A stretch of DNA of 64,000 nt. Origin: Alphaproteobacteria bacterium (GTDB taxonomy: Bacteria; Pseudomonadota; Alphaproteobacteria; Micavibrionales; Micavibrionaceae). Both the position numbers and the translations under genes were made by a program. The stretch lies in contig JAUHWR010000001.1 in the NCBI GenBank assembly GCA_030427385.1, positions 1,544,042 to 1,608,041 on the forward strand, written 5' to 3'. The notes beneath the pieces were generated by a model, which did not search any database, was not told the DNA's origin, and saw only the letters and a program-made list of their open reading frames with translations. Below are positions 46,972 to 64,000 of this stretch, piece after piece; positions within the stretch are counted from its first letter, which is position 1, and each line of letters begins with the position of its first letter.

Positions 46972-49900
46972 CTAATCCATTAACGCTTGACGAAGCTTTG
47001 CCTGACGATTTTCGTGATACGTTAAGACATCTACAAAGGCGCTATTTACATCATATTGGCGCAATATATCCGCCTCATCAGAAATATCTTGGATATCGCT
47101 TATATCTTGTAAGAAGTCCATCGCTTCACGCATATTCGTATAACCGCCGGAATTATCAACATTTTCAAAAGAAACAACCTGCTTTTGAACTACCTCATCA
47201 TTATTTTGCGCTATAAATGGTATGGATAAATCAAGGCCTAAAATCTCTCGAATGCGATCCGTAGTATGATTGCGTAAAATTTGGTCGGTTTTGATTTCGA
47301 ATAAATCACGTTGACCAAAATTTCCTGTGATATCTGACAATAATAAATTACTATCGCGCACCGGCTCTTTTAAGCTCAGGAATTCAAGATCCGCGTGACG
47401 GCGTGTGCGCTCCGGCTCTATAAATCCTTCATTACTGAATTCGGCAATATCATTAATATCAATGGTGAAGGTTTGATCAAACGTATTGCCCTCCACATCC
47501 GTAACGCGAACAACAATGTCTATCGATGAGAATTCTTCAAAATCAAGCGCATTGCTTTGAAGCAATAACTGATCTCCTGAGATCATAAACATATTATCAG
47601 GATTCGTCATCAGCGTGTAACTCATCACGTCATTGGGCATATTCGCATCTGTTGCCGCAAGATTACCAACCAGTGTTTGTTCTTCGGAATTTTCATCTAT
47701 ATTCATGTTATCCAGCTCGATAACATCCGGCGCCACGTTATCTGTGACGTTAATCGTAAATATCTGATCAAATGTGCCGCCATTACCATCATCGGATCGA
47801 ACGGTCACGGAATGTGTGGCCTGTGATTCAAAATCAAGCGCGGCATTTAAAACAAGATTTCCACTGTCCAAAATGAATTTGCTGTCCGGATCGGCGATAA
47901 TGCTATAGGTGAAGCTATCCGCAGGAAGATCAGAATCCGTGGTAGATAGCGCGCCGATAATCGTGCCAATTTCAGATGTTTCCAATATATCAAGATTTGA
48001 AAGATCAATAGCTGTAGGTGCATCATTTTGCGGCGTTACGGTAATTGCGATGCTAGCCGTATCAGCAATTGCGCCATGTTCAAGACCATCAGCAAGGGAG
48101 ACATCAAAGCCGGCGGTGAGTGTCTCACTGCCATCATGAATGAATGCGACATCAGAATTTATAATATCCTGATACGTGAACGTATTTTGAGCAACGCCGC
48201 CAACTTCTATCGTGCCATTGGATATATTTGATGCAGTGAATGTAATGTCTGCATTTATATCATCCGGGTCAATTCCGCTTAAGTCTGTCGTGGTTAGAGT
48301 GTAGCTTGCGCCCTCATTCATGGCGATGGTTAAATCCCCCCCAATCACCGCGGAGTCATTTTGCGGGGTCACGGTAATATTGAACGTATCTGCCGCAAGG
48401 GTATTTGTCGCATCGCGCACTGTGAAATCAAAGCTATCCGTTGTTGTCTCACTGCCATTATGGACATATTGCACGCGCCCCGCCTGAATATCTGCCAAGG
48501 AGAAACTGGTAATTGCCACGCCTGCATTTGTGGAAAGCTGGAGACGGCCATTACTTAATGCGCCTGTCACATCAAAGATTACCGCGGCAGGCAGCGTATC
48601 AACATCCGATGTTGTTAGTGCCGCTGTTGTAATATCAATTGTGGCGCCCTCATTTAAGGTAATGCCATTATTTGTGGCCACGGCGGGCAGATCATCCACC
48701 GGAGTTACAGTTATGCTCATTACATCAGTATCTGCCACTGCGCCATGCTCCAATCCATCGGCGAGGGAGATATTAAATCCGGCGGTTACTGTCTCACTAC
48801 CATCATGGGTGAATGTAACATCGTTATCTATAATATTTTGGCGTGTGAATGTATTTTGCGTCACGCCGCCCACTTTAATAATGCCGTTTGATAATGCCGA
48901 AACAGTATAGGTAACATCGCCCGCGCCATCATCCGGATCAATCGCGCTCAAATCCGCGGTTGTGATTGTGACGCTATTACCTTCGATGACAGTCATGGAA
49001 AGATCGCCTGTAATGACCGCGCCATCATTTTGCGGTGTAATAACAATATTGAATGTGTCCGCCGCCAATGTGTTTGTTTCATCGCGCACTGTGAATGTGA
49101 AGCTATCTGTTGTTGTCTCGCTGCCATCATGGACAAATCGCACGCGCCCCGCATTGATATCCGCCAAAGAAAACGCCGTAATGGCAACACCCGGCGCAGT
49201 TGAGCGCTCTAAACGCCCATTTGCAGGCGAGGCCGTCACATCAAAAATCACTTTACGCGGTTCAGTATCAATATCCGTAGTGGTTAATTGTGCGTTGGAA
49301 ATAGTAACGGTTGCACCTTCATTTAAAGTTACGCCGTTATTGATGGCCGCGGTCGGTAAATCATCCACCGCATCAATGATAATATCAAAGCGCCCCGTAT
49401 CAGGAAGCGTGCCATTTTCCGTACCGTCAATGACAGATAGATCAAATCCCGCCGTTAATGTATCGCCGCCATCATGGATAAACGTTAGACGATTATTATC
49501 TATGTCATCCTGCGTAAAGGTTGTTGCCATGACGCCGTTAACTTCCAAATGGCCATTTTCAATGTTGGATGCGGTATATGTTAATCCGGTTCCGCTATCA
49601 TCCACATCCACTGTATTAATATGAACATTTGTCAGGTTCAGCGCACCGCCTTCATTCATGCGAACTTCATTTCCGCTTTCGTAAAAGTTAACATTGCGGA
49701 ACGTAATTGAGCTTGTCCCCGATGCATCATGATCCAGAACAAATACCATCTGGGTCATATTGCCGGTGTAATCCTGCCCGATCGGAATATCAAATCGCAC
49801 CCAGCCATCACCAGATTGATATGTACGGAATGTCTGATCCATACCTGACCATACTTGCGAGCCATATAATTGATATCCTAATACCCCGCCGCCAAAGCCG

Positions 49901-52900
49901 CTTGCATCATCAAAGCCAATCCCCACGATCTCTGCCGGATCATCCGTCTGAAATTCAAATGACAATACCGTATTTGCCGTTAAAGAATAGGGATATAGAA
50001 CACGCTTCCATGCATTACCACCAATCGTTAGTTCAGATCCATCTGCACTGACGGTTGCTGTAGCTGGCAAGCCGTTTTGCCCGTCTTGAAAAGCATCAAA
50101 GGCTTCTATTGTATAATCATTAAAATCGATAATATTCGGCGCGCCGTCATTTATCACCAGAGTCGGTGCTTCGTTAATCGGTGTCACATTGATTAAGAAC
50201 GTATCAGTATCAGGCGCCGCGCTGTTTTCGCCGCCATCGGCAACTTGAATATCAAACCCCGCAACAGTTGTTTCGCTATCATCATGTATAAACGTGACCA
50301 ATCCAGCATCCAGATCGGCCTGCGTGAACGTATTTTGTGTCACGCCGTTCACTTGAATTATTCCGTTACTTAGATTAGACGCGGTCCAATCCAAACCTGT
50401 TCCGAAATCATCGGGGTCAAAGGAATCCAACATGGTGGTATTTAAAACCAGCGTTGCGCCTTCATTCATGGTCGGCGCAGCATTGGTGGAAATTATAGGT
50501 GCATCATTAATGTTATCAACGCTCATGCTAAATGTACCTGAGGCAGTGCCCGCCCCATGCTCCCCGCCGTCAGCAATTGTAAAATCAAAACTAGCCGTCG
50601 TCGGAGGGCCGCTATGGCGGAAAGCAATTCGTGAATTATCAATATCATCCTGCGTAAAGCTGGTAATCGCCACATTCGGGTTTGAGACAAATTCAACTTG
50701 TCCGTTAACTGTCCCTGTTATGTTGAAATCCAGACCAATGCCGCTATCATCCGGATCAGCGGCGCGCAAAACAGCATTTTTAATTAAGACAATGCTGTTC
50801 TGATTTACAGAGGAACCAAGATTTAAACCAATCGTCGGGGCATCATTCACCGCAATTTTTGTCAGGTTAATCGTAGCACTATCGGGGACAGCGCCATGCT
50901 CCCCGCCATCTGCCACGCTCACATCGAATTGTGCATTTCCTTCATTGCCATCATGACGAAACACAACCCGATTTGCATTTAAATCGGCTTGGGTAAACGA
51001 AAGGATCGGCACACCCGGATTAGTCGAAAGCTCCACAAAGCCATTTGTGATATTGGATAGTGTATAAGTAAGACCTGTGCCGCTATCATCCGGATCAGTC
51101 GTATTTAAAATTGCGGTTGTAATGGTTACGGTTTGACCTTCGACCACGCTGACGGGCGCATTTGTTGTGATGATCGGCGTATCATTTAACGGCGTTCTGG
51201 TAAGGGTGAATGTCCCCGTAGCGGGTACGGCGCTATCCTCCCCGTCATCCGCCAAAGAAAAGTCAAAGCTGCCATTGGCTTCTGCGCCGTCATGGATAAA
51301 GACAACCCGGTTATTATTGACATCATCTTGCGTAAATGTTGTGGATGTTACGCCGTTGACCTCTATGTGGCCATTTGCAATCGAACTGGCAGTATACGTT
51401 AATTGATCTGGTGTATCCGTTACATCTGTATCGGTTGAATCCAGCATTGCTTGGGATATGCCAATGCTACCCCCTTCCAACACAGTTGCGCCGGTATTGG
51501 TTATGATAGAGGGACCATAATTTACATCCGTGATCACAATATTAAAGGTGTTTCCTGATACTGTCTCCCCACCATCAGTTACACTGAAATCAAAACCATC
51601 GGACAAAGTCTGCGATCCGTCATGGATATAAACTACGCGGTTATTTTGTATATCATCAAGCGTGAAGCGTGAAATTTCATAACCGGGGTAAGTTGTTAAC
51701 TCAATACGGCCATTGACCGGCTTGCTTTCCATTCTAAAAATTGTATCGCTCGCCACATTATCAATATCGCTTATATTCAACTCCGCAATCGTAATCGGGG
51801 TTGTGGCCCCTTCCAGAACATTTAACGGGTTGTTATGTGTGATGGTAAAATCATCGTTAAAGTTAATAGTAATATCAATTTCCGCAAATTTCCCGCCAAC
51901 GGCTTCAGTGGCGCGAATGGTCAAAATGTAGCTATCTGTTACAGTTGCATTCAGATTTGTGGTATCCAGAATTCGTAATTCACCTGTCAGTGTATCAATC
52001 TCAAATATACCATCGCCATTTCCCGCCTGAACCGAATAGTTTAACACGCCGCCTTCGGGGTCAATCCCCTTCACAAACCCAACAGAATCGCCAACATTAA
52101 TGTCCGATCCATCAGGGTTGGAATGGCTGAGTGTATAAGTATCATTATTGATAACATCCTTGCCCTCCCACTCCACGACTGAATATCGCGAACTGCCATT
52201 ATTATCGTCATACCACAGGTCATTATTGTTCATCAGCGCATAGTTTGCGCCTGTACCGCTATTTGGCTCTGATCCGTTCCAGTTATTATAAAATGCACCA
52301 TTATCTACATTACCATTTCGCACAATTTGCATACCGGCTTCGGGGCCCGCCATCCAATACCACTCCCCTTCATTGCCGGAATCACTGGCGGCAATCCATG
52401 AATGTGTTGATGTCATCTGATCTACGAATGATTGCTCCGCAGCCGATGTGATGGTGACCAAATGCCCGCTTTGGCCAAAAAGAAGCTGCGTTTCCGCAAA
52501 TGATAACGCATCATCAAAAGACCTGTTTGTGGTGATCTCTTTACAAAAATTCCCTGTTGCCGCACTGTAATAAACACCAAAATAAGTTGTTTCAACAACT
52601 GCTTCCGCCGTCAGAAGGGGCGCTTCATCGATATCGGTGATGTTAATAACAACATTCCTGTCGGTATATTTTGATAAAGCATTGTCATCATAAGCGCGTA
52701 TACGAATGGTATATTGATTATCACGGTCATAATCCAATAACGTATTATTCGCAATTTCAATTAAACCCGTCGTTGCATTAATTTTGAATACATTATCGTT
52801 ATTACCGCTTACGATTGAATAGGTGCGCGTATCCCCTTCTGCATCTGTCGTTACAACCGTGCCGACATCATCATTAACACTCGCATTTTCGGCAATGGAA

Positions 52901-55530
52901 AAAGGGCCATAGCTTGTAAAAACCGGCGCCGTATTTTCAAGTGCATCCAGAATATTGATGGTATAGGTCTGATCATCAAAAAGTAACCCCGGCCCATTAT
53001 CCGTCGCACGTACATCCAATGTATATGATCGTATTCCCAATTCGTAATCAATTGAGCTGTTATCAATAATTTTAATTTCACCTGTGGCGCTATCAACCGA
53101 GAAAATGCCCACGCCCGTGCCACCGGTAATAGTATATGTCAGGCTTTGCCCAACATCCGGATCATATCCCGCCACATGCCCGATTTGATCATTATTCGGG
53201 GTTAATTCCGACATTTCAATGACACGGTCAGAACCGGTTTCCTTTAGTTCCTTAATTTTCAAATTATCGATGCCGAACGCTTCATTATTAAGATCATTTG
53301 TATTCAAGTTTGAACCAAAACCTAATTTAAAGGAGCTATCCGTATTCTTAATGGTTAAAGAATATCTGACGATCTGGTCCTGATAAGAGGTGTTATAAGT
53401 AATAAAGCCGATATCATCGGTTAATTCCTGTACGCGATATGTCACATCGCCAAATGTGCCACCCACTTCCCGATCATAAGTCGTGCGATTATAAATATCA
53501 TTGTTTAAAACCTGTGTATCATTAATAAACAGGTAAAATCTCTCGTTTTCCCAACTATCAAGCTCATAAAAATCAAACTCAATTGTGATATATTCCTGAT
53601 CACCGGACAGGGCGAATGTTTGAAATAATTCTTGATCGCCCGCAACGTGAACATTTCTGCCAAATCTGCCCCAAAACTGCGATAACGTGGCATCGGTTGA
53701 TGTTGTATTATTATTCCAACCTGATGCGCCGCCTTCAAAATCCTCATCATATATAGTTACTTCTTCCAATAAAACCGGCGCGGTATTGACGGTATTGACC
53801 CGGATATCATAGGTCTGTCCCGCAATCGTGTTGGTACCGTCATACAGGCTGAAGATAAATTGATCATCAGATCCGATCATGCTGTCATATGTGATTGAAC
53901 CAACATCTAAATCATTCTGTGTAAATGTATCCCCAAGCCCCAAAGCGACCCCGTCTTTGTAGATCGTGCCAAAAGAAACATTGCCGGTAATGGTGTAAAT
54001 CAAGGCGGAGGAGCTATCATCAATATCTGTGGCAATTAATTTGGTATTTAACTCACCTGGATCAAGCGGAAAATCATAGACAATAAAATCACTATCAATG
54101 GTGCCCTGAAAGGCCGTTGTTCCGTTCGCACTGCCGTTAAAACCGCCATAAGACCCACCGCCAACAACCCCGATGCCGCCGTCATTACCACCGGATAAAT
54201 CGGCTGTGTCCGTATATCCTGTTAAAGAGGCTTCGGCCGTTCTGCCATAAGAAAACCAATCAAAGTTTCCTGCTTGACGGTAATGCATTCTGATTTCGTT
54301 TGATTGCACATCAACTTCAACAACTACCGCATACTGCGTAGAGTTAGCCAAAGCCGCCCCAGAGGATAAAACGGGAGTATTAGAGGCCGCACCTGAATAC
54401 CAGACCAATTCGTTTGCGCTATTAAGATAGAGCCCTATTCCGCGACCTGATCCGCCATCTTCAAACAGAACTTGTCCGGGATTTGCCGCGTAATTAGTTG
54501 CCGCCGTTGTAAAAATAAGTGTGAACTGGCTGCTTTGACCATCTATCAAACCCTGATTTGTGCCATATGATCCAACCCCGCTTTCGCGATATTTTTCAAT
54601 GCCAAATGTGCTGGCATCGCCGCCGAGTGAGACGGAAAAGCCAAGCGAGACATCCGCGCCGTTATTGGTGACAATTATCGGTGCTTCATCAACCGGCGTA
54701 ACATCAATCGAAAATGTCTGCGCGGTTACTGTGTCTGTCCCATCCGTAATTGTAAAATCAAATGAATCCGATATGGTTTCGGAATCATCATGCACATATT
54801 GCACACGGTTATTATTAAGATCATCCAGTGAAAAAGACGTAATCGCAACGCCGGTATTTGTGCTCAGCTCTATGCGGCCATTTATGGTTGTACTTGTGAT
54901 ATTAAAGATTACTTCTGTATCCGTATTATCTGGATCGCTTACGCCCAACATCGCCGAAGTGATCGTTGCCGTACTACCTTCAAGAAGGCTGAGCGGTGTG
55001 TTTGTATCTACGCTTGGCGCTTCATTTTGAGCAACAACTGTCACACTGATATCTTCGGAAAAATACGCCCCTAGAGAGAAATTTATCGTACGGTTAAGCG
55101 TTGGGCTATCTGAGCTATTTTGATAAGTTATATTTTCTATCAAGCGTTCAATTGCCGCTTTGGACGCATTAATATTTAAATCAAAGACCAAATCCAAGCC
55201 GTTTGTTCCGTTTGAAGAAACCGTGGCAATCAATACGCCCTCAAAAGTCACGTTCGCTCCATCGAAACCGATTTGACCTGCGCCCGTGCCTTCATCATTT
55301 AAAGTTAATTGGTCTTCCGCGCCGCCCGTCGTTGATATCGTTAGCGCATCACCATCAAAATCGGTTGTTGTGCCTGAGATAGTAACGTCTGAATCAAGTA
55401 TTTGCGGAGTTGCATTGGCATCATTTTCCGCCATAACAGTTGTTGTCGTCAACGCCCCCAAAGAAGCATCCAACATCACGCGCTTTTCCAGCGCCATGAG
55501 GGTCAATCTCTTTTTTCGGATCCCTGACAT
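46972..55530 (-). CDS. Giant (~2850 aa) mosaic adhesin with about 20 cadherin-like/Ig-like ~105-aa repeats, classical cadherin repeats, LamG, two jelly-roll/CBM-like domains and a C-type lectin domain; no Sec signal, no RTX
   Basis: Recurrent repeat ...NEGA...I....L...D.D......F......NG..........IT.F...D.....V.F.HDGSE....F.F...DG. LamG at about 54100-54560. Jelly-roll at about 53250-53760. CTLD at about 52160-52560 (HSWIAASDSGNEGEWYWMAG...YNNWNGSEPN...WYDDNN...VVEWEG). CBM-like domain at about 49670-50140. Classical cadherin repeats at about 47440-48040 and 52590-53000. The ORF-track start at 55539 is a TTG; the ATG at 55528-55530 has a GGAAAGG SD. Confidence 0.85.
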   Translation of the reverse strand: MSGIRKKRLTLMALEKRVMLDASLGALTTTTVMAENDANATPQILDSDVTISGTTTDFDGDALTISTTGGAEDQLTLNDEGTGAGQIGFDGANVTFEGVLIATVSSNGTNGLDLVFDLNINASKAAIERLIENITYQNSSDSPTLNRTINFSLGAYFSEDISVTVVAQNEAPSVDTNTPLSLLEGSTATITSAMLGVSDPDNTDTEVIFNITSTTINGRIELSTNTGVAITSFSLDDLNNNRVQYVHDDSETISDSFDFTITDGTDTVTAQTFSIDVTPVDEAPIIVTNNGADVSLGFSVSLGGDASTFGIEKYRESGVGSYGTNQGLIDGQSSQFTLIFTTAATNYAANPGQVLFEDGGSGRGIGLYLNSANELVWYSGAASNTPVLSSGAALANSTQYAVVVEVDVQSNEIRMHYRQAGNFDWFSYGRTAEASLTGYTDTADLSGGNDGGIGVVGGGSYGGFNGSANGTTAFQGTIDSDFIVYDFPLDPGELNTKLIATDIDDSSSALIYTITGNVSFGTIYKDGVALGLGDTFTQNDLDVGSITYDSMIGSDDQFIFSLYDGTNTIAGQTYDIRVNTVNTAPVLLEEVTIYDEDFEGGASGWNNNTTSTDATLSQFWGRFGRNVHVAGDQELFQTFALSGDQEYITIEFDFYELDSWENERFYLFINDTQVLNNDIYNRTTYDREVGGTFGDVTYRVQELTDDIGFITYNTSYQDQIVRYSLTIKNTDSSFKLGFGSNLNTNDLNNEAFGIDNLKIKELKETGSDRVIEMSELTPNNDQIGHVAGYDPDVGQSLTYTITGGTGVGIFSVDSATGEIKIIDNSSIDYELGIRSYTLDVRATDNGPGLLFDDQTYTINILDALENTAPVFTSYGPFSIAENASVNDDVGTVVTTDAEGDTRTYSIVSGNNDNVFKINATTGLIEIANNTLLDYDRDNQYTIRIRAYDDNALSKYTDRNVVINITDIDEAPLLTAEAVVETTYFGVYYSAATGNFCKEITTNRSFDDALSFAETQLLFGQSGHLVTITSAAEQSFVDQMTSTHSWIAASDSGNEGEWYWMAGPEAGMQIVRNGNVDNGAFYNNWNGSEPNSGTGANYALMNNNDLWYDDNNGSSRYSVVEWEGKDVINNDTYTLSHSNPDGSDINVGDSVGFVKGIDPEGGVLNYSVQAGNGDGIFEIDTLTGELRILDTTNLNATVTDSYILTIRATEAVGGKFAEIDITINFNDDFTITHNNPLNVLEGATTPITIAELNISDIDNVASDTIFRMESKPVNGRIELTTYPGYEISRFTLDDIQNNRVVYIHDGSQTLSDGFDFSVTDGGETVSGNTFNIVITDVNYGPSIITNTGATVLEGGSIGISQAMLDSTDTDVTDTPDQLTYTASSIANGHIEVNGVTSTTFTQDDVNNNRVVFIHDGAEANGSFDFSLADDGEDSAVPATGTFTLTRTPLNDTPIITTNAPVSVVEGQTVTITTAILNTTDPDDSGTGLTYTLSNITNGFVELSTNPGVPILSFTQADLNANRVVFRHDGNEGNAQFDVSVADGGEHGAVPDSATINLTKIAVNDAPTIGLNLGSSVNQNSIVLIKNAVLRAADPDDSGIGLDFNITGTVNGQVEFVSNPNVAITSFTQDDIDNSRIAFRHSGPPTTASFDFTIADGGEHGAGTASGTFSMSVDNINDAPIISTNAAPTMNEGATLVLNTTMLDSFDPDDFGTGLDWTASNLSNGIIQVNGVTQNTFTQADLDAGLVTFIHDDSETTVAGFDIQVADGGENSAAPDTDTFLINVTPINEAPTLVINDGAPNIIDFNDYTIEAFDAFQDGQNGLPATATVSADGSELTIGGNAWKRVLYPYSLTANTVLSFEFQTDDPAEIVGIGFDDASGFGGGVLGYQLYGSQVWSGMDQTFRTYQSGDGWVRFDIPIGQDYTGNMTQMVFVLDHDASGTSSITFRNVNFYESGNEVRMNEGGALNLTNVHINTVDVDDSGTGLTYTASNIENGHLEVNGVMATTFTQDDIDNNRLTFIHDGGDTLTAGFDLSVIDGTENGTLPDTGRFDIIIDAVDDLPTAAINNGVTLNEGATVTISNAQLTTTDIDTEPRKVIFDVTASPANGRLERSTAPGVAITAFSLADINAGRVRFVHDGSETTTDSFTFTVRDETNTLAADTFNIVITPQNDGAVITGDLSMTVIEGNSVTITTADLSAIDPDDGAGDVTYTVSALSNGIIKVGGVTQNTFTRQNIIDNDVTFTHDGSETVTAGFNISLADGLEHGAVADTDVMSITVTPVDDLPAVATNNGITLNEGATIDITTAALTTSDVDTLPAAVIFDVTGALSNGRLQLSTNAGVAITSFSLADIQAGRVQYVHNGSETTTDSFDFTVRDATNTLAADTFNITVTPQNDSAVIGGDLTIAMNEGASYTLTTTDLSGIDPDDINADITFTASNISNGTIEVGGVAQNTFTYQDIINSDVAFIHDGSETLTAGFDVSLADGLEHGAIADTASIAITVTPQNDAPTAIDLSNLDILETSEIGTIIGALSTTDSDLPADSFTYSIIADPDSKFILDSGNLVLNAALDFESQATHSVTVRSDDGNGGTFDQIFTINVTDNVAPDVIELDNMNIDENSEEQTLVGNLAATDANMPNDVMSYTLMTNPDNMFMISGDQLLLQSNALDFEEFSSIDIVVRVTDVEGNTFDQTFTIDINDIAEFSNEGFIEPERTRRHADLEFLSLKEPVRDSNLLLSDITGNFGQRDLFEIKTDQILRNHTTDRIREILGLDLSIPFIAQNNDEVVQKQVVSFENVDNSGGYTNMREAMDFLQDISDIQDISDEADILRQYDVNSAFVDVLTYHENRQAKLRQALMD
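48028..49365 (-). repeat. Near-exact tandem duplication (two units of 669 bp / 223 aa, each a two-domain unit) inside the adhesin gene
   Basis: The units begin at DDLPTAAINNG (first Asp codon at 49363-49365) and DDLPAVATNNG (48694-48696), exactly 669 bp apart. Long identical DNA runs occur, for example CATCGCGCACTGTGAA in both copies (near 48410 and 49080). Confidence 0.85.
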
Positions 55531-55610
55531 CAATAACAACCTTTCCGTCTTCTATTAAGTGTAATCGGATTTGGTTAAGAACTCTTAAAATTTTCAATAG
55601 TATCAGCAAT

Positions 55611-57032
55611 TTAATGCGTCATGACGATATCTCTCGCTAATGTATTTTGAAAGGTTGCATAGGCATCTTGCAGATCCGTTAACGATTGGTAATAAGATAT
55701 TTTTTTAGATTGCGCCTGCATCTTACGGATAAAAGCATCCTGTTTTGTTTCAAACCCAACGCCTGATTTCTTTTCCAGCGCATAAGCCATGAATTTTTCA
55801 TTCTCATATTCTTTCTGGCGATCACGCGTTAATTGATAAAAATAATCCAGCCTTTGCCGCGCCAAATGTACCTGTGTCATTACCGCCAAAGTCAATGATA
55901 ACCGCTTGGCGTTATCTATCTCCATTTGGTTTTTCGCCCCGCGCTTACGAAGGGGATAAGTAATCAGAGCAGATAAGTTTTGCTGCAAGGATAACGTGAA
56001 ACTGCCCCATTGATTTTGTCTTAAAAAATCGTTGCCATCGCGATTAATGCCAAATAATAATTCCGCGCCCGGAACGGTGCGAATGATTTCCTCGCGTAAG
56101 TTTTGTAAATTCACATCCCGCTGCAATACTTGTTCACGTATCTCAGGACGATTTTTAATTGCCTCTGCTTCAAGAGTTTCTATATCTTCCGCCAGAAGTG
56201 CCTTCACCTCTTTCGATGGTATCCGCATATCTTCGCTTAGTTTCAGATTGATATTTTGCGGATAAGATAACAGGCTTTTCAACTCGGTCATCGCCAGAGA
56301 AATCTGGCTTTGAGAGTTACGAAGCGCGGTAAGTGATTCTTGGATATCCTGTTCCATATCTCCTAATACTTCACGTGAAAGTAGCTTTTTATTCTCTGCG
56401 GTTTTTATATTTTGAAGCAATTCCTGCGCTTGGCGAAAAATAGCATCGCTTTCCTTTTCAGTTTTTTGTGCGGCGAGCGCACGGTAATAAGCGGCATAAA
56501 TATCCTTTTGAATATTCTGGACGACTTTATTATAACGCTCTATCGCTATTTTTTGCTGCGCTTTTGCATTTTGTGCCTGAGACACCGCCAATAATATATT
56601 TAACGTTGTCCAGTTCACGCTTAAATCTTGGGTATCCCGAAAGGACTGGGTTGAATATGATGGCTCTAATGATTGGGTATTTGTTAAAACTGACCGGCTA
56701 GACGCCGCGCCCTTATTGGATCGCCCAATATAGCTCGCATTTAAGTTTAAAGATGGTAGCGCATTCATTCTGGCCAGATCAATCTGGTCTTCGGCGGCCA
56801 GAGTTTCTAATGCGGCAACATATGCATCTAAATTCTTTTCTGCGCCGCGCCTTAAGGCATCATTCAAGGTTAGATGAATTGTTTGATGTTGAAAATCATC
56901 AAATCCCAATGCCTTTTGATCTTGCGCTAATACATCAATATGCTGCGCGCTATCCATCTCCGTTGGAGTTGTAGTACAACCGCACAAAAGGACAAAACCG
57001 CCAAGAAACATTAATTTTAAGTTGGGTATCAT
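55611..57032 (-). CDS. TolC-family outer-membrane channel lipoprotein
   Basis: Lipobox LLCGC. Two-fold repeated coiled-coil/beta architecture typical of OEP proteins (473 aa). Its start overlaps the upstream gene's stop (ATGA at 57029-57032). Confidence 0.8.
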   Translation of the reverse strand: MIPNLKLMFLGGFVLLCGCTTTPTEMDSAQHIDVLAQDQKALGFDDFQHQTIHLTLNDALRRGAEKNLDAYVAALETLAAEDQIDLARMNALPSLNLNASYIGRSNKGAASSRSVLTNTQSLEPSYSTQSFRDTQDLSVNWTTLNILLAVSQAQNAKAQQKIAIERYNKVVQNIQKDIYAAYYRALAAQKTEKESDAIFRQAQELLQNIKTAENKKLLSREVLGDMEQDIQESLTALRNSQSQISLAMTELKSLLSYPQNINLKLSEDMRIPSKEVKALLAEDIETLEAEAIKNRPEIREQVLQRDVNLQNLREEIIRTVPGAELLFGINRDGNDFLRQNQWGSFTLSLQQNLSALITYPLRKRGAKNQMEIDNAKRLSLTLAVMTQVHLARQRLDYFYQLTRDRQKEYENEKFMAYALEKKSGVGFETKQDAFIRKMQAQSKKISYYQSLTDLQDAYATFQNTLARDIVMTH

Positions 57033-59158
57033 GAGATCACATCACTTTCCGGTAAAATAATAGAATAAGCCCATATTAATATCTGGACAATGGGGGCGAT
57101 TTTTTCCCCCGACATCATGACCTTGCCTGTTGCGGCAAAAGGTACATCCGACACATCTGGGGTTAAGGTTACTTTATACAAAGTTTGGCGCGGAACGATG
57201 CGCTCTTCTTCATATCCATTTGTGAAAAACTCACTATAGATAGAACCGCCATAGAGTGAGGATAATTCCTTTTTATCCAGACTGCTTATGTTTGTTTGCT
57301 CAATGTCTTGTACTTTTACGGGGATGGTATCAGCAAGAGCATAATCTGCCCGAAAACTCCCTTTTGTACCCGCCTTCAATCTTTCAAATTGCTGCTCTGT
57401 GACATAAGCACTTACTTTATAAACTTGTGGCTTTATGAGGCGAAATAGTAATTTTTCTTGTCCGACATATAGACCTTCATGCAAATCTTCGGCGCCGTCT
57501 TTAATAATACTGTCATAGGGCGCTTTAATAACAAGCTGTTCCTTTTTCACCTCGAAGGAGGATACTTTTAGTGATAATTCTTTGATTTCATTTTCTAATT
57601 GATCCAGATCCTCCCGCAGCAATGCCGCATCTGTTTGGCGGCGTCTCTTGATTTTCTCCAATTCCTGTAGCGAATTTTTGGCGATATTATAATCGCGTTC
57701 CAATTCTTCTGATTGCATGTAAATTAAGACTTCACTGGCTTTGACCATACGGTTTTCCGTGACATTTAAAGAGATAATTTGCGCAGGATATGGTGCATAA
57801 ATATCGCGATATTCCGCAGCATGAATTAAAGCGGGAATTTGCATACGCATATTTAAGGGAATAAATAATAAACACAAAGCGCATGCAAATAATAGAACGC
57901 TTATTTTGCCTCTCGCATGGATAAGAATGTCTTGCCTGCGAGTCGCCCATATTTTGAGCTCCGATAAGATGGGCTTACCTATAAACCACAGCAATTCAAT
58001 GCCCATAAGAATTAACCCAAGCGGCTTTGGGAATAACACATATACCAAATACGCAATCCCCAAAAATAGGAAGAAACGATAAATCAAAATGGCCCAGCCA
58101 AAGATGATAAAAAACTTTATTTTTTCTGGCCGCCCATATTCCGGGCACTCATCTTTCCATCCGAATAATGTTTTACGCAAAGCCCAGCGCGCACAGGCAA
58201 AAGAGCGTGCATGAAGGTTTTCTATGCTGAGCATATCGCTTAAAATGAAATATCCATCAAAGCGCATTAGCGGGTTTAGGTTAATCAATAATGAGCCGAT
58301 AAGTGAGATACTCACGATACTAAAAGCAATACTCTGCAATGTGCCGGGCGCGGAAAAATTCCAAATTAACAGAAAAATAGAGGCGAGCATTAATTCAATG
58401 CGTATCCCGGCAAGACCAATTTCAATCTTTTCTTTCTTAGAAGCCAAATGCCAGGCGGCCGTGGTTTCTGTGTAAAATACCGGATACATCACCATAAAGG
58501 CAATGCCCATATGCGGTACCTTTAACCCATATTTATGCGCAGTATATGCATGTCCAAGCTCATGAAATAATTTGATAATTGTAAATATTATGGCGATCAT
58601 CATTGCACCTTCTGCACTGAATAAGTCCATAAAAGTATGGATAAATTCATCCGCGCGCCCCAATGTCATGATCACGCCCAATATCAATAATAAAACACTA
58701 AAAAACGTTGCTTCTCTGGAGAATAAAAAAGCAAGATACGGATACGTCGCCTTTAAGAAATTTTGCGGGCGAAATATGGGCAAAGAAAAAAATAAATATT
58801 TATGAACCAGTTCAGATAATAACGATTTTTCTTTTTGGGGCGGGGTAAGGGGCAGCCCGTCTGTTTCTAAAATTAATCCATGTTGATTTAGAAATAACAA
58901 CAATTCCTTAAAAACATCCGTCTCCGGCTCCAGAGTGGTTTGATTATGTAGTAAAGACGCAAGATCATCATATGTTTCACAAAATGAAAAGCGGGACAGA
59001 TATTCAAATTCAACCCAGCCAATTTGAAAATATTGATGGGAAACGGGATGATATAACCGCCAGAATGGCTGCCCATCCTCATCAATGCCGCCCTTTATTA
59101 ACTTCAAATCCGGACTAAGGCGGGGTATTTTTGTATCGGCGCTTACCTCGAACATCAT
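57029..59158 (-). CDS. Fusion protein: cytoplasmic PqqD/RRE-like N-domain, polytopic S2P/M50 zinc metalloprotease, and HlyD-type membrane fusion (periplasmic adaptor) domain
   Basis: HELGH at 58550-58564 and NLNPLMRFDG at 58253-58282 (S2P HExxH and NxxPxxxxDG motifs) sit inside hydrophobic helices. At least six TM segments. The C-terminal 260 aa have a coiled coil (EELERDYNIAKNSLQELEKIKRRRQ...) plus beta-barrel segments typical of MFPs. Confidence 0.75.
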   Translation of the reverse strand: MMFEVSADTKIPRLSPDLKLIKGGIDEDGQPFWRLYHPVSHQYFQIGWVEFEYLSRFSFCETYDDLASLLHNQTTLEPETDVFKELLLFLNQHGLILETDGLPLTPPQKEKSLLSELVHKYLFFSLPIFRPQNFLKATYPYLAFLFSREATFFSVLLLILGVIMTLGRADEFIHTFMDLFSAEGAMMIAIIFTIIKLFHELGHAYTAHKYGLKVPHMGIAFMVMYPVFYTETTAAWHLASKKEKIEIGLAGIRIELMLASIFLLIWNFSAPGTLQSIAFSIVSISLIGSLLINLNPLMRFDGYFILSDMLSIENLHARSFACARWALRKTLFGWKDECPEYGRPEKIKFFIIFGWAILIYRFFLFLGIAYLVYVLFPKPLGLILMGIELLWFIGKPILSELKIWATRRQDILIHARGKISVLLFACALCLLFIPLNMRMQIPALIHAAEYRDIYAPYPAQIISLNVTENRMVKASEVLIYMQSEELERDYNIAKNSLQELEKIKRRRQTDAALLREDLDQLENEIKELSLKVSSFEVKKEQLVIKAPYDSIIKDGAEDLHEGLYVGQEKLLFRLIKPQVYKVSAYVTEQQFERLKAGTKGSFRADYALADTIPVKVQDIEQTNISSLDKKELSSLYGGSIYSEFFTNGYEEERIVPRQTLYKVTLTPDVSDVPFAATGKVMMSGEKIAPIVQILIWAYSIILPESDVIS

Positions 59159-59161
59159 GGG

Positions 59162-60493
59162 CTATACCCCCAACATACTACGCAGCGTGATTAACGGTCT
59201 GCGCAAGATTTTATAGATCAAGATAGTGCGTTGCCCATTAATTTTGGCAACACCTTTCCATCCGATGCGTATGTCCGCATCCTTATCATTTAAAAGCGCG
59301 CGGATTTTATAAGTTAGCAATCCATCAGCATCCGCACTGGCCTGATAACCTATGGTATCTATTGACGCGGCATAATTCACCAAAGGCGTGGCATTAGGAA
59401 AGAAGGAAATGTCTGCCTCTTCTCCCACTGGCAACATTGATTGCAAGGGAATACGAATTAAAAGCTCAACCTCGGCGGGATCGGCAATCTGCATGATGGG
59501 TTGTCCTGTCCGCACCGGTTTATTTTTCAAATCATTTTTATCGGCAAAGATAGCTATGCCGGCACGCGGCGCTTTAATGACGGCTTTGTCTAGTTGAGTT
59601 TTCGCATAATCCGCTTCGATCTCTTTGGTTTTAATCTCTGATAACAGACGATGCAGTTCCGTCTTTTTTTCAGGGCTTGATAAAACTTCTCTCTGTAATC
59701 GGGAAAGGCGGCTCAAAGACGCCCTATAAGCTTCCGAAGATGTGTCTGCTTGCAAAGTCAAAGAGTCCAAATCCATTTCTGCCACGGGCATGTTTTCGTC
59801 AACCTTGGAACCCGGATTAATCAGAACATTATTTAATATACCGTCAAATGGCACGCTGACGGTCATCGAGGATACCGCAATGACTTCGGCGGGCGCGCTG
59901 ATTGTTAATCTGACAGGTAGAAATGCAAGTAAACATAATATAATCCATATATATTTTCGATATGGCTTTACCTTGTCGGATAAAGGTAGAAAATCACGCT
60001 TATCTTTAACGCGGTTCAAAACCATGGCGCGCGTATAGTAAAATGATAATTCGTTTAAAATATGTGTATCGGCCTCACTTAATGGCGCTTCACGTTCCAG
60101 CCACAGACCGCCTAAAATTTGTTGATCTTCGCCGTATTTAAAAAATACAATTGAGGCATTCGGCGCGGAATATCCCAGCCATTCTTTAGTTTCCTCCTCT
60201 GATAATCCTGATAATTCAATGGGATGTATAATATCATCGACCTGGGAGCCTTTGATCTCTTTTTGCAAAACATCCTTCAGCCATATTCCGTGTGGGCCAT
60301 TAGGGTCAAGTACAGCATTGCCAGAAATGTTATGCAGATTGACCGTCTTACCACTCACCGTCCAAAAAACTGCCCTTCTGTAATCGACAATTTTTTTAGA
60401 GACATTTACCGCTAGAAAGCCGAGTTCCTTTAATGACGTCGTTTCCAGAGCCTGTTTTTGGATTTGGAGCAATAGCAGCGCCTTATCCATCAT
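59162..60493 (-). CDS. HlyD-type membrane fusion protein with an N-terminal cytoplasmic GAF-like domain
   Basis: About 175 aa of soluble N-domain ending ...QILGGLWLEREAPLSEADTHILNELSFYYTRAMVL (GAF-like by eye). One TM helix (YIWIILCLLAFLPV). Then lipoyl-like, coiled-coil and beta-barrel MFP segments (VIKAPRAGIAIF...VRTGQPIMQIADP). Confidence 0.65.
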   Translation of the reverse strand: MMDKALLLLQIQKQALETTSLKELGFLAVNVSKKIVDYRRAVFWTVSGKTVNLHNISGNAVLDPNGPHGIWLKDVLQKEIKGSQVDDIIHPIELSGLSEEETKEWLGYSAPNASIVFFKYGEDQQILGGLWLEREAPLSEADTHILNELSFYYTRAMVLNRVKDKRDFLPLSDKVKPYRKYIWIILCLLAFLPVRLTISAPAEVIAVSSMTVSVPFDGILNNVLINPGSKVDENMPVAEMDLDSLTLQADTSSEAYRASLSRLSRLQREVLSSPEKKTELHRLLSEIKTKEIEADYAKTQLDKAVIKAPRAGIAIFADKNDLKNKPVRTGQPIMQIADPAEVELLIRIPLQSMLPVGEEADISFFPNATPLVNYAASIDTIGYQASADADGLLTYKIRALLNDKDADIRIGWKGVAKINGQRTILIYKILRRPLITLRSMLGV

Positions 60494-61736
60494 TTGCCCC
60501 TGTTTGCACTGCTTGCTTCATTTTACTTAAACGTCTGTTATTTTGCATTTGTAAGGCAGTTTGCTCCTTTTGCGTTTCCAAATATCCTAGAATGCCCTGA
60601 TCACGGATTTTCAATGCGTTCACTTCAACCAGACCGCTCATCCCCGGTAATAACGGATCATTATACCCCTTTAGCGCCGCGCTCATTTGAATAGATTGAC
60701 TGACGGGGTCAACTTCACCGTAAATCTTTGTTATCTCTGCCTGATAAATTTCTCCTGTTTCGGATACTTTGACGCTCAATGGCGCGCCGATATTCACATA
60801 GCGCAACCATTTTGAGGGTAGAATAAACTGGACATCTAATTGATCGCGTGAAGCAATTTCCATTAAAACACGATCTGTGCGTGTATATTCCTGGGGATTT
60901 GCCAGGCGATTCGTGACACGCCCATCATAGGATGCGCGAATGATGCAAGCATCCATTTGAGATTTTAGCGTGCTATTTTGCGCTGTGGTTTTTTGTTCCT
61001 CAACCTTCAGCTCTTGCTGTTCCAGATCCGAAATAATATCAAGCTTGAACAGCTCTTGCCCTTGTTTTACACGTTTTTTTGCCAGATTTTCAGCCGCCTC
61101 AATTGCCGCGATTTCATCATTAAGATTTTGACAATCATACGTCAGCAAAATATCACCCGCCTGAAACACATCGCCATTATCAACATAAATATGCTCGATT
61201 TTGCCATCGCGGCTGCTGGAAATAACCGTCATTTTTTGCGGCACTAACACGCCTTCAACGCGCAAGATTTCGTCTTCTATATCATAGCGATATGACATCG
61301 GTTCAGATATAACAACGCCCTTGGGCGGCTCCTTGCGTTTGACAATAATACCATCGGTGCTTTCTTGATCATCCTGTGCAAGTTTATGCGGCGCAGAATC
61401 CGTAATTGTTTGTAATTCCTGTACATGCAAGATAGGGGCATGATCATGATTTCCAGAGCTAGGCTCAATATCCTGTAATGATACCCAAGAGCTGATATCA
61501 GGTTTTGCGAATAATCCTTGCGGGATTTGTACGGAAAAATTTAATTTTGATTGCCAATAGGTACTGGTTTCCTGAAACAGTTCCACAAATTCTTTGCCAT
61601 TGGGCAAGCCTACTTCTGGGATATAGCTCTTCGAAGCTTCCTGACGTTCGGTAACATAAAAAAATCCGCCACCTGCAAAAATACAGATGATCAGCCCCGT
61701 AAGGAGTATCCCGAATGTTTTTCTCTTCATTAACAT
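60483..61736 (-). CDS. HlyD/RND-adaptor-type membrane fusion protein
   Basis: N-terminal TM helix (FGILLTGLIICIFAGGGFFYV). Lipoyl-like VDNGDVFQAGDILLTYD, a coiled-coil hairpin, then IIRASYDGRVT... and GMSGLVEV. The start is uncertain (TTG 61742, ATG 61736 or ATG 61730). Overlaps the next gene by 11 nt. Confidence 0.75.
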   Translation of the reverse strand: MLMKRKTFGILLTGLIICIFAGGGFFYVTERQEASKSYIPEVGLPNGKEFVELFQETSTYWQSKLNFSVQIPQGLFAKPDISSWVSLQDIEPSSGNHDHAPILHVQELQTITDSAPHKLAQDDQESTDGIIVKRKEPPKGVVISEPMSYRYDIEDEILRVEGVLVPQKMTVISSSRDGKIEHIYVDNGDVFQAGDILLTYDCQNLNDEIAAIEAAENLAKKRVKQGQELFKLDIISDLEQQELKVEEQKTTAQNSTLKSQMDACIIRASYDGRVTNRLANPQEYTRTDRVLMEIASRDQLDVQFILPSKWLRYVNIGAPLSVKVSETGEIYQAEITKIYGEVDPVSQSIQMSAALKGYNDPLLPGMSGLVEVNALKIRDQGILGYLETQKEQTALQMQNNRRLSKMKQAVQTGANDG

Positions 61737-61840
61737 AACCAAGCAGACATGCCCAAGTGAATGGAATAGACTTTTCCACTTTTTATAATAAAGTAAAAAT
61801 CAAGACTGCGGAACGAAAAATCTAAAAAAACGATATTTTT

Positions 61841-63250
61841 CTAAGCTTTAATGCTGAATTGATTCGTTTTTTTACGGCAAATTGATTGGCACCAGAAATG
61901 CACGCTTGCCCCCGCAAGTACATTCACCCCGGCGATCGCCACAAATAATCCGGTAACGCCATAGTAAAAATGCCCGATATAGATGGCGGGAATCATAAGG
62001 AAAACCATCTTTACGACAATCATAACAAACGATAAATGCGGCATGCCCATGGCATTGAATGCCGATGCCCACCCATTCACCAAGTTTGAAAAAGCATAGG
62101 TCAGCGGCACAATCATAAAAAACAAGACAACATAATTGATAACGCCTTGGCCTTGTTGAAATAACGCGCCAATCTGTTCACCGAATATTAATAAAATTAA
62201 GGCCACTATCATCGAATAAATAACGGAAAACCCAATCGCCAGTCGCAGGGTTTCATTAACGCGGTCCATTTTTTTTGCGCCAAAATTCTGTCCTATAATT
62301 GGCGCCATGCCAACGGCAACACCCATAATTACTATAAATGCGAATGCCTCTATACGGCTGACAATGCCAAAAGCCGCAACGGCCTCAAGGCCAGATTTCG
62401 CCAAAAGTGTAATAATCAGCGCATTCACAACCGGCTGGATAGAATTCGTCAAACCCGCCGGAAGTGCAATAAATAACAACCTTTTGGCACTATCCCAAAA
62501 TAACTCAAAGCGTATGAGCTGCTGAAAGCAAATCAGGTTTTTTTTAACATATAGAACGTATAGCCCCGCGCACATAGCCGCGGCATTGGCAATGACGGTG
62601 GCAATCGCCGCGCCCTGAATTTCCAATCGTGGGAATCCCCATAATCCAAAAATCAATAATGGGTCCAAAATAATATTAACAACCGCAACAACCGTCATAA
62701 TTATTGCGGGCGTAAAAGCGTCCCCACTGGCACGAATGGCTGAATTGCCAACAAGAGGTATTGTTATAAAAACCACGCCTGCATACCAAACCGTCATGTA
62801 ATTAATCACTAATGGTAAGAGGTCCGGGTCTGCGCCCATTAATGTAAATAACCCGTTTTGTGACCAAAGTCCGATCCCCGCCAAAACTAAAGACAGCAAT
62901 AAAACCAGTAATAACCCTTGTGATGTAACGCGTTGCTGCACCTCGCGATTCCCCTCCCCGATCAGGCGAGATACCACGCTGGACATGGCGATGCCAAAGC
63001 CCATGACAAAGCTGAAGATCATATAGGTAATCGGGAATGTAAAGGTAACTGCGGCTAATTCCTCGGTGCCGAGTAACCCGATAAAATACATATCCACCAA
63101 CTGAAATGAAATAATCGCCCCGATCCCCCACATCATTGGCACTGATAAACGGGTTAAATGGGATTTAATTGCGCCCTTGGTTAAATCGCCCTTATTTTTA
63201 TAATGGGCAGGAATGTCGGCATCATCATCAAGGGCGGGCTCAGAACTCAT
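61841..63250 (-). CDS. MATE-family efflux transporter
   Basis: 12-TM protein. LTRLSVPMMWGIGAIISFQLVDMYFIGLLG is typical of the MATE N-terminus. The start was moved to the ATG at 63248-63250 (MSSEPALDDD...), which removes an improbable 72-aa extension that would run into the purL promoter region. Confidence 0.8.
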   Translation of the reverse strand: MSSEPALDDDADIPAHYKNKGDLTKGAIKSHLTRLSVPMMWGIGAIISFQLVDMYFIGLLGTEELAAVTFTFPITYMIFSFVMGFGIAMSSVVSRLIGEGNREVQQRVTSQGLLLVLLLSLVLAGIGLWSQNGLFTLMGADPDLLPLVINYMTVWYAGVVFITIPLVGNSAIRASGDAFTPAIIMTVVAVVNIILDPLLIFGLWGFPRLEIQGAAIATVIANAAAMCAGLYVLYVKKNLICFQQLIRFELFWDSAKRLLFIALPAGLTNSIQPVVNALIITLLAKSGLEAVAAFGIVSRIEAFAFIVIMGVAVGMAPIIGQNFGAKKMDRVNETLRLAIGFSVIYSMIVALILLIFGEQIGALFQQGQGVINYVVLFFMIVPLTYAFSNLVNGWASAFNAMGMPHLSFVMIVVKMVFLMIPAIYIGHFYYGVTGLFVAIAGVNVLAGASVHFWCQSICRKKTNQFSIKA

Positions 63251-63332
63251 GAGATAGGTATAGAAGTTTTTTCTGTCGATGAAAACAAAGAAAAGGCTTT
63301 TCCTTCCTATTGTTTCGATTGTATAAAACCAT

Positions 63333-64000
63333 ATGACACAAAATGCCCTGAAATCATCCGCCGCCACAATCCATGAGCCTGAAGTAACCTTTGAGCTTGC
63401 CAAAGGATATGGATTAAGCCGTGAAGAATATGACCTCATCTTAAATCGTTTAGAGCGCACGCCCACCCATACCGAAATAGGAATATTTTCAGTAATGTGG
63501 TCAGAGCATTGCTCCTATAAAACATCACGCATGCACCTTAAAACGCTGCCCACTAAGGCACCTTGGGTCATTCAAGGGCCGGGGGAAAATGCCGGAGTTA
63601 TTGATATCGGCGATAATCAGGCCGCCATATTTAAAATGGAATCTCATAATCACCCTTCTTATATTGAACCCTATCAAGGTGCAGCCACTGGCGTGGGCGG
63701 TATTATGCGCGATGTCTTTACAATGGGCGCACGCCCAATTGCGAATTTAAATGCGCTGCGTTTTGGGGATCCCTCCCATCCTAAGACACGGCATTTAATC
63801 AACGGGGTTGTCGCCGGAATTGCTGGATATGGCAATTGCATGGGCGTACCAACTGTTGGCGGAGAAACTCAATTTGACAGCAGTTATAACGGAAATATCC
63901 TTGTTAATGCCATGACTGTAGGTATTGCCGAACAAGATAAAATATTTTATGCACGCGGTGCATCCGTGGGTCAGCCGGTGGTTTATGTCGGGTCAAAAAC
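63333..64000 (+). CDS. purL: Phosphoribosylformylglycinamidine synthase subunit PurL (5' part, runs off the right edge)
   Basis: My own translation from the ATG at 63333 gives [66 protein letters not shown]...[12 protein letters not shown]...[27 protein letters not shown]. This is the canonical PurL N-terminus. It is absent from the ORF track because no stop codon lies within the window. Confidence 0.9.

Follow-up and report, generated by a model that had tools for sequence, protein, structure and literature searches.

A gene cassette pairing an unusual protease fusion with a giant surface protein was found in a 64,000-nucleotide stretch of DNA from an Alphaproteobacteria bacterium of the family Micavibrionaceae (GCA_030427385.1, contig JAUHWR010000001.1, positions 1,544,042 to 1,608,041; this whole stretch is called the window here). 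The central gene encodes a single polypeptide in which a domain with the fold of a RiPP recognition element (RRE; RiPPs are peptides made by the ribosome and modified after translation), a site-2 protease (S2P) of family M50, and a HlyD-type adaptor follow one another (Table 1). With a probability of roughly 60%, this fusion is the three-module signature subunit of a cassette dedicated to the export of giant surface proteins, and would capture a leader in the cytoplasm, cleave it within the membrane, and pass the cargo out by way of the adaptor and a TolC-like protein. The case is built on the identities of the domains, the conservation of the catalytic motifs, the topology inferred from hydropathy, and the genomic coupling of the cassette to cargo proteins that share an N-terminal motif. 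The cassette is widespread and apparently undescribed. Full-text literature searches returned nothing on M50-adaptor fusions with giant adhesins, and LEPR-XLL, the name of the cargo motif, came up in them as an annotation label only, in two papers.

Alignment of 57 homologues (35 to 61% identity) showed no variation at seven positions of the protease core, H199, E200, H203, N293, P296, D301, and G302. Judged from this alignment, HELGH and NLNPLMRFDG are not chance matches because the catalytic residues never vary. HELGH lies within a hydrophobic segment (amino acids [aa] 179 to 202), giving the HExxH in a membrane helix that characterizes M50 proteases, and NLNPLMRFDG supplies the second motif of the family, NxxPxxxxDG. 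Pfam Peptidase_M50 (PF02163) was a marginal match, covering aa 188 to 277 at 26.3 bits, just below its gathering cutoff of 27.2; homologues of the fusion have precomputed PF02163 matches, and the fusion profile matched mjS2P (3b4r) among the PDB sequences with an E value of 1e-3. The best NCBIfam match was the daptide intramembrane metalloprotease NF041824 (E 3.8e-40, aa 37 to 374), at 138.2 bits, far under the 300-bit cutoff that would make the fusion a member of the daptide DapP/MpaP family. The second was the YydH/LiaK epipeptide protease NF058609 (E 3.1e-13, aa 152 to 316). The nearest curated families are RiPP leader peptidases (the daptide RRE-S2P and YydH/EpeP). Zinc-dependent intramembrane proteolysis by the S2P core is predicted.

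Hydropathy analysis of the fusion gave seven membrane segments (aa 149 to 167, 179 to 202, 247 to 265, 274 to 292, 346 to 375, 380 to 398, and 419 to 437), with 14 compared to 2 lysine and arginine residues on alternate loops. This implies that the N terminus is cytoplasmic and the C terminus periplasmic, and therefore that the RRE lies in the cytoplasm, the adaptor in the periplasm, and both catalytic motifs on the cytoplasmic side, at the ends of transmembrane helices 2 and 4 (TM2 and TM4). In the C-terminal part, Pfam HlyD_3 matched aa 543 to 622 at 40.4 bits (cutoff, 22.2), Foldseek returned MacA, EmrA, and MexA at E values of 1e-10 to 1e-11, and the best match of the fusion profile among the PDB sequences was HlyD (8dck; E 6.7e-16). 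A membrane anchor is followed by lipoyl, alpha-hairpin, and beta-barrel domains, which is the arrangement of HlyD-type adaptors. The full-length AlphaFold2 model, computed from the 57-sequence alignment (pLDDT 89.8), shows, in order, an N-terminal module of three strands and three helices (aa 19 to 92), a helical membrane core, a single helix (aa 415 to 432), and an adaptor with an alpha-hairpin (aa 484 to 540) and beta domains. An earlier note, made from the letters of this DNA, had described an M50-adaptor fusion with both S2P motifs intact; the motif coordinates that it gave proved exact, the fusion is real, and the hydropathy result, with the motifs at membrane-helix ends and the adaptor in the periplasm, favours the reading of the note.

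The family is large. A word-index search found 474 relatives of the fusion, the closest being 61% identical and located on a metagenome contig, and almost all of the 120 best listed are about 700 to 730 aa long. A comparison of aa 1 to 435 with 1.84 billion cluster representatives gave 10,963 matches with E values up to 1e-3, of which 2,192 had E values of 1e-30 or below; among the best 150, nearly all again had the full fusion length of about 700 to 730 aa.

The N-terminal domain has the fold of an RRE, as judged from AlphaFold2 models. Its pLDDT was about 90 whether the domain was modelled alone or within the full-length protein (87.9 overall for the model of aa 1 to 112), and a three-stranded sheet (aa 19 to 25, 31 to 37, and 42 to 46) is followed by a three-helix winged helix (aa 48 to 55, 63 to 73, and 80 to 92), as in known RREs. 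The separate domain model was needed because the Foldseek search with the full-length model gave adaptors only among the 50 matches listed. With aa 1 to 112, the ten best matches in the PDB were exclusively RRE proteins, drawn from four RiPP classes, and several of these structures were solved with a bound leader peptide. They included TbiB1 with its leader (5v1u/5v1v; E 0.012; target-normalised TM-score, 0.62 to 0.66), TfuB1 with its leader (6jx3; TM-score, 0.68), CteB (5wgg/5why), and TglHI (8hci), and the matches ranked below these ten had low probability. Three residues, G29, L66, and L90, do not vary within the family, and conservation is 90% or more at P31, Y43, W48, E52, R56, F89, and L95. 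A connection to PqqD was provided by a distant fusion on a Pseudosulfitobacter plasmid (locus L085; the related loci are numbered L001 onward), which passes the Pfam PqqD model at 26.8 bits (cutoff, 23.4) and matches the window fusion over aa 29 to 676 (tblastn E 5e-26). PGAP names such distant fusions "PqqD family peptide modification chaperone," and hhalign aligned the N-domains of the window family with the Pfam-PqqD-positive distant ones over 93 collinear columns (P 9.3e-5). The domain is probably homologous to PqqD-type RREs, although by sequence it is not a Pfam-level member of PqqD. The earlier proposal of a PqqD-like RRE is supported for the fold and not for a PqqD sequence match; the N-terminal sequence quoted in its favor is present and conserved throughout the family.

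The same domain could instead be a generic winged helix serving DNA binding or dimerisation, in which case the protease would act in signalling, by regulated intramembrane proteolysis of an anti-sigma-like factor controlling adhesin expression. When a profile of the N-domain was searched against the PDB sequences, only weak winged-helix regulators were returned (MecI, E 0.23), and five members among 39 family N-domains weakly match the Pfam MCM winged-helix model. However, the structural neighbours are RREs rather than DNA-binding winged helices, no sigma or anti-sigma genes occur in the cassette, and the fusion to a periplasmic adaptor with its TolC-like linkage would make little sense for a signalling protease. 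A signalling role is thus very improbable.

The principal new finding concerns the gene neighbourhood. A one-genome-per-species scan detected at least 585 related loci, of which 80 were fetched and compared over ±10 kb around the fusion gene. These 80 loci span Pseudomonadota and Nitrospirota and include Pseudomonas, Burkholderia, Pelagibacter, Alteromonas, Phytobacter, Arcobacter, Azospira, and many Nitrospira, among others. The recurrent order is outer-membrane factor, adaptor 1, adaptor 2, and fusion. The only conserved gene families were the adaptor type (80/80), the outer-membrane factor (57/80), and giant proteins (49/80), and 59 of the 74 loci with enough flank had an open reading frame (ORF) of at least 700 aa no more than 2 kb from the cassette. 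In the window, the minus strand carries, in order, adaptor 1, adaptor 2, the fusion, the TolC-like factor, and a 2855-aa adhesin, with housekeeping genes downstream of the adhesin, and the start of the TolC-like gene overlaps the fusion stop by 4 bp. No ABC, RND, MFS, or other transporter or ATPase was conserved in the 80 neighbourhoods; the fused S2P may stand in place of the usual inner-membrane transporter partner.

The neighbourhoods also bear on the possibility that a small peptide of ribosomal origin (a bacteriocin or RiPP, in the manner of EpeP/YydH or daptide MpaP) is matured and exported by the fusion, with the adhesin a mere neighbour. In its favour, the best profile matches of the fusion are RiPP leader peptidases, RREs are otherwise known from RiPP pathways only, and both cleavage and export of its own peptide have been proposed for the M50 protease EpeP, which is equally a precedent for the export mechanism proposed here. 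However, no family of small precursor ORFs extended beyond 6 of the 80 loci, and the 6 in question are close relatives within Nitrospira. These loci have no conserved modifying enzymes, and the daptide cluster genes (short precursors ending in Thr, aminotransferase, dehydrogenase, and methyltransferase) are all missing from the cluster of the window and are not conserved among the related loci. In addition, just 71 bp separate the outer-membrane-factor gene from the adhesin gene in the window, and the giant motif-bearing ORF is the sole conserved neighbour that is not machinery, from E. coli plasmids to Nitrospira. A small-peptide substrate is improbable on these grounds.

Comparison of the giant ORFs showed that they share an N-terminal LE(P/K)RxM(F/L)D motif, with the consensus (L/I)(L)ALEPRIMFDGAAVATA where the N terminus is visible. 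Positions L(-1), E0, R2, and D6 were present in 37 of 38 sequences, and the motif expression had 36 matches in the 2.76 million six-frame residues of the loci compared to 0 to 1 in shuffles. The NCBIfam LEPR-XLL model (NF012209) scored 18 to 20.5 bits on related cargos (cutoff, 17). The window adhesin has a K-for-P variant, which it shares with its nearest relatives (L001, L003, L066, and L081). The motif is followed by a stretch of small residues, GAAVATA in cargos and SLGALTTT in the window adhesin, and most cargos have a di-alanine there. The motif-bearing N terminus is the presumed RRE ligand; the earlier note had pointed to the first ~30 residues of the adhesin, and comparative genomics now backs that choice. 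An RRE is expected to have a cognate peptide encoded nearby with a conserved recognition sequence, and such a sequence is present here, the candidate ligand being unusual in that it is part of a giant protein. LEKR cargos occur with "HP.S" and LEPR cargos with "DP.R" in the RRE, a co-variation that was discounted as evidence because it follows phylogeny. At the other end of the cargos, no shared C-terminal secretion signal was found and conservation was clade specific only, and the window adhesin has no RTX repeats (no HemolysinCabind in the Pfam scan). Its last ~250 aa (46972-47720, minus strand), ending …FVDVLTYHENRQAKLRQALMD, are conserved only among LEKR-clade cargos (L001, L003, and L066; E 1e-12 to 1e-23). 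C termini differ in other clades: a hydrophobic segment closes some Nitrospira cargos, and a loose (S/L)(F/L)xxQ(L/F)… helix is seen in many others.

The coupling of cassette and motif-bearing cargo persists down to ~20% identity, on plasmids of E. coli, Pseudosulfitobacter, Pontibrevibacter, and Methylosinus. Plasmid or chromid records with the cassette number 67, of which E. coli contributes 18 and Citrobacter 8. A good example is E. coli pKL53-L (L084, NZ_CP030920.1 109718-129511), which has a complete cassette in the order Ig-like giant, TolC-like gene, two adaptors, and fusion; the giant is a 4473-aa LEPR-type protein beginning "…RFALESRQLFDGAALAETA". Its carriage beside insertion sequence elements on IncFIB-type plasmids, in both E. 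coli and Citrobacter, shows that the cassette is horizontally mobile and makes it available in a tractable host.

A more distant branch (Pseudosulfitobacter, Pontibrevibacter, and Methylosinus) shows a different order: giant, DUF3467 protein, GAF-adaptor, PqqD-S2P-adaptor fusion, SecA-like ATPase, short adaptor, and TolC-like protein, the last being annotated only in the Methylosinus locus. Its giants reach 10 to 13 thousand residues, and that of Pseudosulfitobacter contains "…FEPRVLLSADL". PGAP itself calls the Pontibrevibacter giant, which lies beside a PqqD-annotated fusion, a "LEPR-XLL domain-containing protein"; the PGAP name of the L088 cargo is LEPR-XLL. The SecA-like ATPase (~640 to 660 aa) is encoded directly downstream of the fusion (L085 11048-13030, L088 10788-12773, and L089 10841-12757) and contains SecA_DEAD (E 7.5e-99) and a preprotein cross-linking domain; its PGAP labels vary between translocase, DEAD/DEAH helicase, and prepilin peptidase. 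This gene, which hints at an energy source, is absent from the window and from loci L001 to L084. The small DUF3467 protein lies between the giant and the adaptors (L085 6657-6998, L088 6512-6793, and L089 6363-6683). A DUF3467 gene was also seen near the cassette in four Nitrospira loci (at ~5.6 to 5.9 kb on the opposite strand in L013, L014, and L070; at ~1.9 to 2.2 kb in L031), and a sequence search of the PDB gave no relative of DUF3467.

The following course is proposed for leader binding, for cleavage and its site, for the inner-membrane route and its energy source, and for the hand-off to the TolC-like protein. The cytoplasmic RRE (aa ~10 to 97) would take up LE(P/K)R-x-M-(F/L)-D of the adjacent adhesin as an extra beta-strand, the way in which RREs bind RiPP leaders. 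The small-residue stretch behind the motif would thereby be placed at the S2P zinc site, which is taken to open to the cytoplasmic leaflet, and the leader, or an anchor with its N terminus in the cytoplasm, would be cleaved. The fused adaptor, probably in a mixed ring with its two paralogues, would join the inner-membrane complex to the TolC-like duct, and the passenger would exit through the duct formed by the three adaptor paralogues and the TolC-like protein. An energy source would have to drive translocation; the SecA-like ATPase could do so in the related branch that encodes it, which is not the branch of the window.

Several observations weigh against this export reading. First, the RRE call rests on a predicted structure with modest Foldseek E values (0.012 to 0.19), and the profile search of the PDB sequences that returned MecI found no RRE. 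Pfam PqqD (PF05402) matched only 1 of 39 family N-domains (E 0.028) and not that of the window protein, and no NCBIfam model matched aa 1 to 103 alone; the NF041824 alignment extends into the RRE because of the adjoining protease only. Second, the motif was seen in only 34 of the 80 related loci, many cargo N termini lying outside the fetched DNA, and aa 16 to 31 of the window adhesin scored 12.1 bits (E 0.12) on NF012209, below the cutoff of 17, which leaves this adhesin outside the LEPR-XLL family. Third, the small-residue stretch is ~10 to 12 residues long, too short for a normal transmembrane substrate. Fourth, the cassette has no inner-membrane transporter or ATPase, and therefore the crossing of the inner membrane by a 2855-aa protein is unexplained. 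Finally, co-location is a functional link but is silent on which step the protease performs.

In a different use of the same anatomy, cleavage would serve release. The adhesin would be tethered by its RRE-held LEPR-like N terminus while the rest of the chain threads the adaptor/TolC duct, and a later, regulated S2P cut would free it, analogous to LapG/LapD acting on LapA and perhaps gated by the GAF-like domain of adaptor 2. S2Ps typically cleave segments or anchors with the N terminus in the cytoplasm, which is a precedent for the export mechanism too, and classically do so in a regulated fashion, and the di-alanine after the motif in most cargos would suit a cut of this kind. The neighbouring adaptor, whose type label (MFP2) is on 76 ORFs of the related loci, has a conserved cytoplasmic domain of the GAF-like sensor type. 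Pfam GAF matched 6 of 18 N-domains of the adaptor-2 family (best E 5.6e-6), and the counterpart in L085 (7038-8903) exceeds the GAF cutoff; the domain was detected through Pfam only, a profile of the adaptor-2 N-domain giving no match in the PDB. This domain may be a sensor regulating the export cassette. However, neither LapD/LapG-like genes nor nucleotide cyclases are conserved in the cassette, and the closest curated relatives of the fusion are constitutive RiPP maturation peptidases. The present data do not discriminate between secretion-coupled and regulated cleavage, and a release switch is considered unlikely.

Comparison with known systems shows which features of the export cassette have precedents. 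The pairing of RRE and S2P is already known because it has been published for daptides, whose peptidase consists of an intramembrane S2P with an RRE fused to its N terminus (Ren et al. 2023, PMC10028931). In addition to this architecture, MpaP/DapP shares a substrate with a short conserved N-terminal recognition motif beside the cut site (PMC10028931). In contrast, MpaP, a protein of Gram-positive phyla, lacks a C-terminal adaptor, acts on ~40-aa precursors, and is found together with ABC transporters and modifying enzymes, whereas the window fusion has a 270-aa HlyD-type extension and is accompanied by two adaptor paralogues, a TolC-like protein, and an unmodified 2855-aa cargo. EpeP/YydH, another membrane M50 protease linked to a ribosomal product that is secreted, has proposed roles in both cleavage and export, but the resemblance is confined to the protease core and the EpeP substrate is a small peptide. 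Stand-alone RREs, such as PqqD and the lasso B1 proteins that head the Foldseek matches, share the strand-strand-strand-helix-helix-helix fold; they differ in being only 13 to 20% identical, in having RiPP precursors rather than the N terminus of a giant protein as ligands, and in lacking the fused membrane protease and adaptor. RseP and SpoIVFB have HExxH and NPxxxxDG in membrane helices and cleave membrane-proximal segments with the N terminus in the cytoplasm, whereas the window fusion has no PDZ or CBS domains, would recognize its substrate through a cytoplasmic RRE, and has no signalling partner in the locus.

Type 1 secretion systems (LapA/LapBCE and HlyA/HlyBD-TolC) also place a HlyD-type adaptor and a TolC-like duct beside a giant repetitive adhesin, and peptidase-containing ABC exporters of the CvaAB-TolC type physically join a leader peptidase to the export machinery. 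Unlike these, the window cassette has no ABC gene, three adaptor paralogues instead of one, an M50 metalloprotease in place of the C39 cysteine protease, and a putative signal that is N terminal instead of C terminal, on a cargo without RTX repeats. The defining features of type 1 secretion, an ABC transporter together with a C-terminal signal or RTX repeats, are thus not found here. By these sequence-based measures, the fusion falls outside the daptide family, classical type 1 secretion, and, formally, the Pfam PqqD and M50 thresholds; in its working it would resemble a peptidase-containing exporter and daptide MpaP. What appears new is the C-terminal HlyD-type adaptor on an RRE-S2P and the genomic context, in which two more adaptor paralogues, a TolC-like gene, and a giant ORF are conserved but neither an ABC transporter nor a small precursor gene is.

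A broader proposition, to which we would give slightly less than an even chance, is that the cassette forms a secretion pathway of its own, widespread in Gram-negative bacteria, which serves giant LEPR-XLL surface proteins. RiPP-style leader recognition and an intramembrane metalloprotease would replace the type 1 ABC transporter, with energy coming from a SecA-like motor in one branch and from an unspecified source in the branch of the window, and this would be the first RRE to read a protein of several thousand residues rather than a RiPP precursor. RREs count as a hallmark of the pathways that make peptide natural products, and here one apparently selects giant adhesins for export. If true, this would give a function to thousands of genes labelled "HlyD family adaptor," "biotin/lipoyl-binding protein," or "PqqD family chaperone," explain the LEPR-XLL motif, describe giant-adhesin export without an ABC transporter in the gene cluster, and warn genome miners that such RRE matches are not biosynthetic clusters. 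The plasmid cassettes of E. coli and Citrobacter make the question directly testable.

Table 1. Features of the fusion gene and its cassette in the window
Feature	Coordinates	Strand	Size or residues	Basis or remark
RRE-S2P-adaptor fusion ORF	57029..59158	-	709 aa	
N-terminal RRE (PqqD-like winged helix), predicted cytoplasmic	58868..59131	-	aa ~10-97	AlphaFold2, Foldseek, hhalign
S2P (M50) membrane core, six hydrophobic segments	57929..58717	-	aa ~148-410	NF041824, NF058609, Pfam M50, 3b4r, hydropathy
HELGH, putative zinc-binding/catalytic motif	58550..58564	-	aa 199-203	Cytoplasmic end of TM2; sequence, alignment, hydropathy
NLNPLMRFDG, with D301 as putative third zinc ligand	58253..58282	-	aa 293-302	Cytoplasmic end of TM4; sequence, alignment, hydropathy
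Seventh membrane helix, predicted to lead the chain into the periplasm and anchor the adaptor	57848..57916	-	aa ~415-437	Hydropathy peak 2.43; AlphaFold2 helix 415-432
HlyD-type adaptor moiety, predicted periplasmic (lipoyl domain, alpha-hairpin 484-540, beta-barrel)	57032..57847	-	aa 438-709	HlyD_3, Foldseek, HlyD profile match
Adaptor paralogue 1	60483..61742	-	419 aa	TIGR01730, 110.8 bits (cutoff, 94.9); conserved in the cassette
Adaptor paralogue 2	59162..60493	-	443 aa	Pfam HlyD_3; directly upstream of the fusion across related loci
GAF-like N-domain of adaptor paralogue 2, predicted cytoplasmic	59969..60493	-	~175 aa	Precedes the membrane anchor; Pfam GAF in relatives
TolC-like outer-membrane factor	55611..57032	-	473 aa	Pfam OEP in two stretches, E 2.4e-19
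Presumed cargo, cadherin-like/lectin adhesin	46972..55539	-	2855 aa	Pfam Cadherin_3 (×12), Cadherin, Lectin_C
Presumed leader recognition motif ALEKRVMLDAS	55462..55494	-	adhesin aa 16-26	Divergent LEPR-XLL motif

Other features of the window were also apparent. The gene immediately upstream of the cassette encodes a MATE-family transporter and is on the same strand (61841-63466, minus strand). This adjacency is shared only with the locus of the closest relative (L081 5845-7251); no MATE gene is labelled in L001 to L080. The window is also rich in further giant surface or secreted proteins, namely, a 2427-aa protein with a two-partner-secretion TPS domain (13309-20592, minus strand), an inverse-autotransporter beta-domain protein with a FecR-like domain (9708-13040, plus strand), and a 1478-aa RTX/cadherin protein (22880-27316, minus strand). 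The C terminus of the last resembles that of a neighbouring 542-aa ORF without a Pfam match (20848-22476, minus strand). The GC content rises to 0.52 at positions 10001 to 12000, within the inverse-autotransporter gene, compared to ~0.38 to 0.47 elsewhere.

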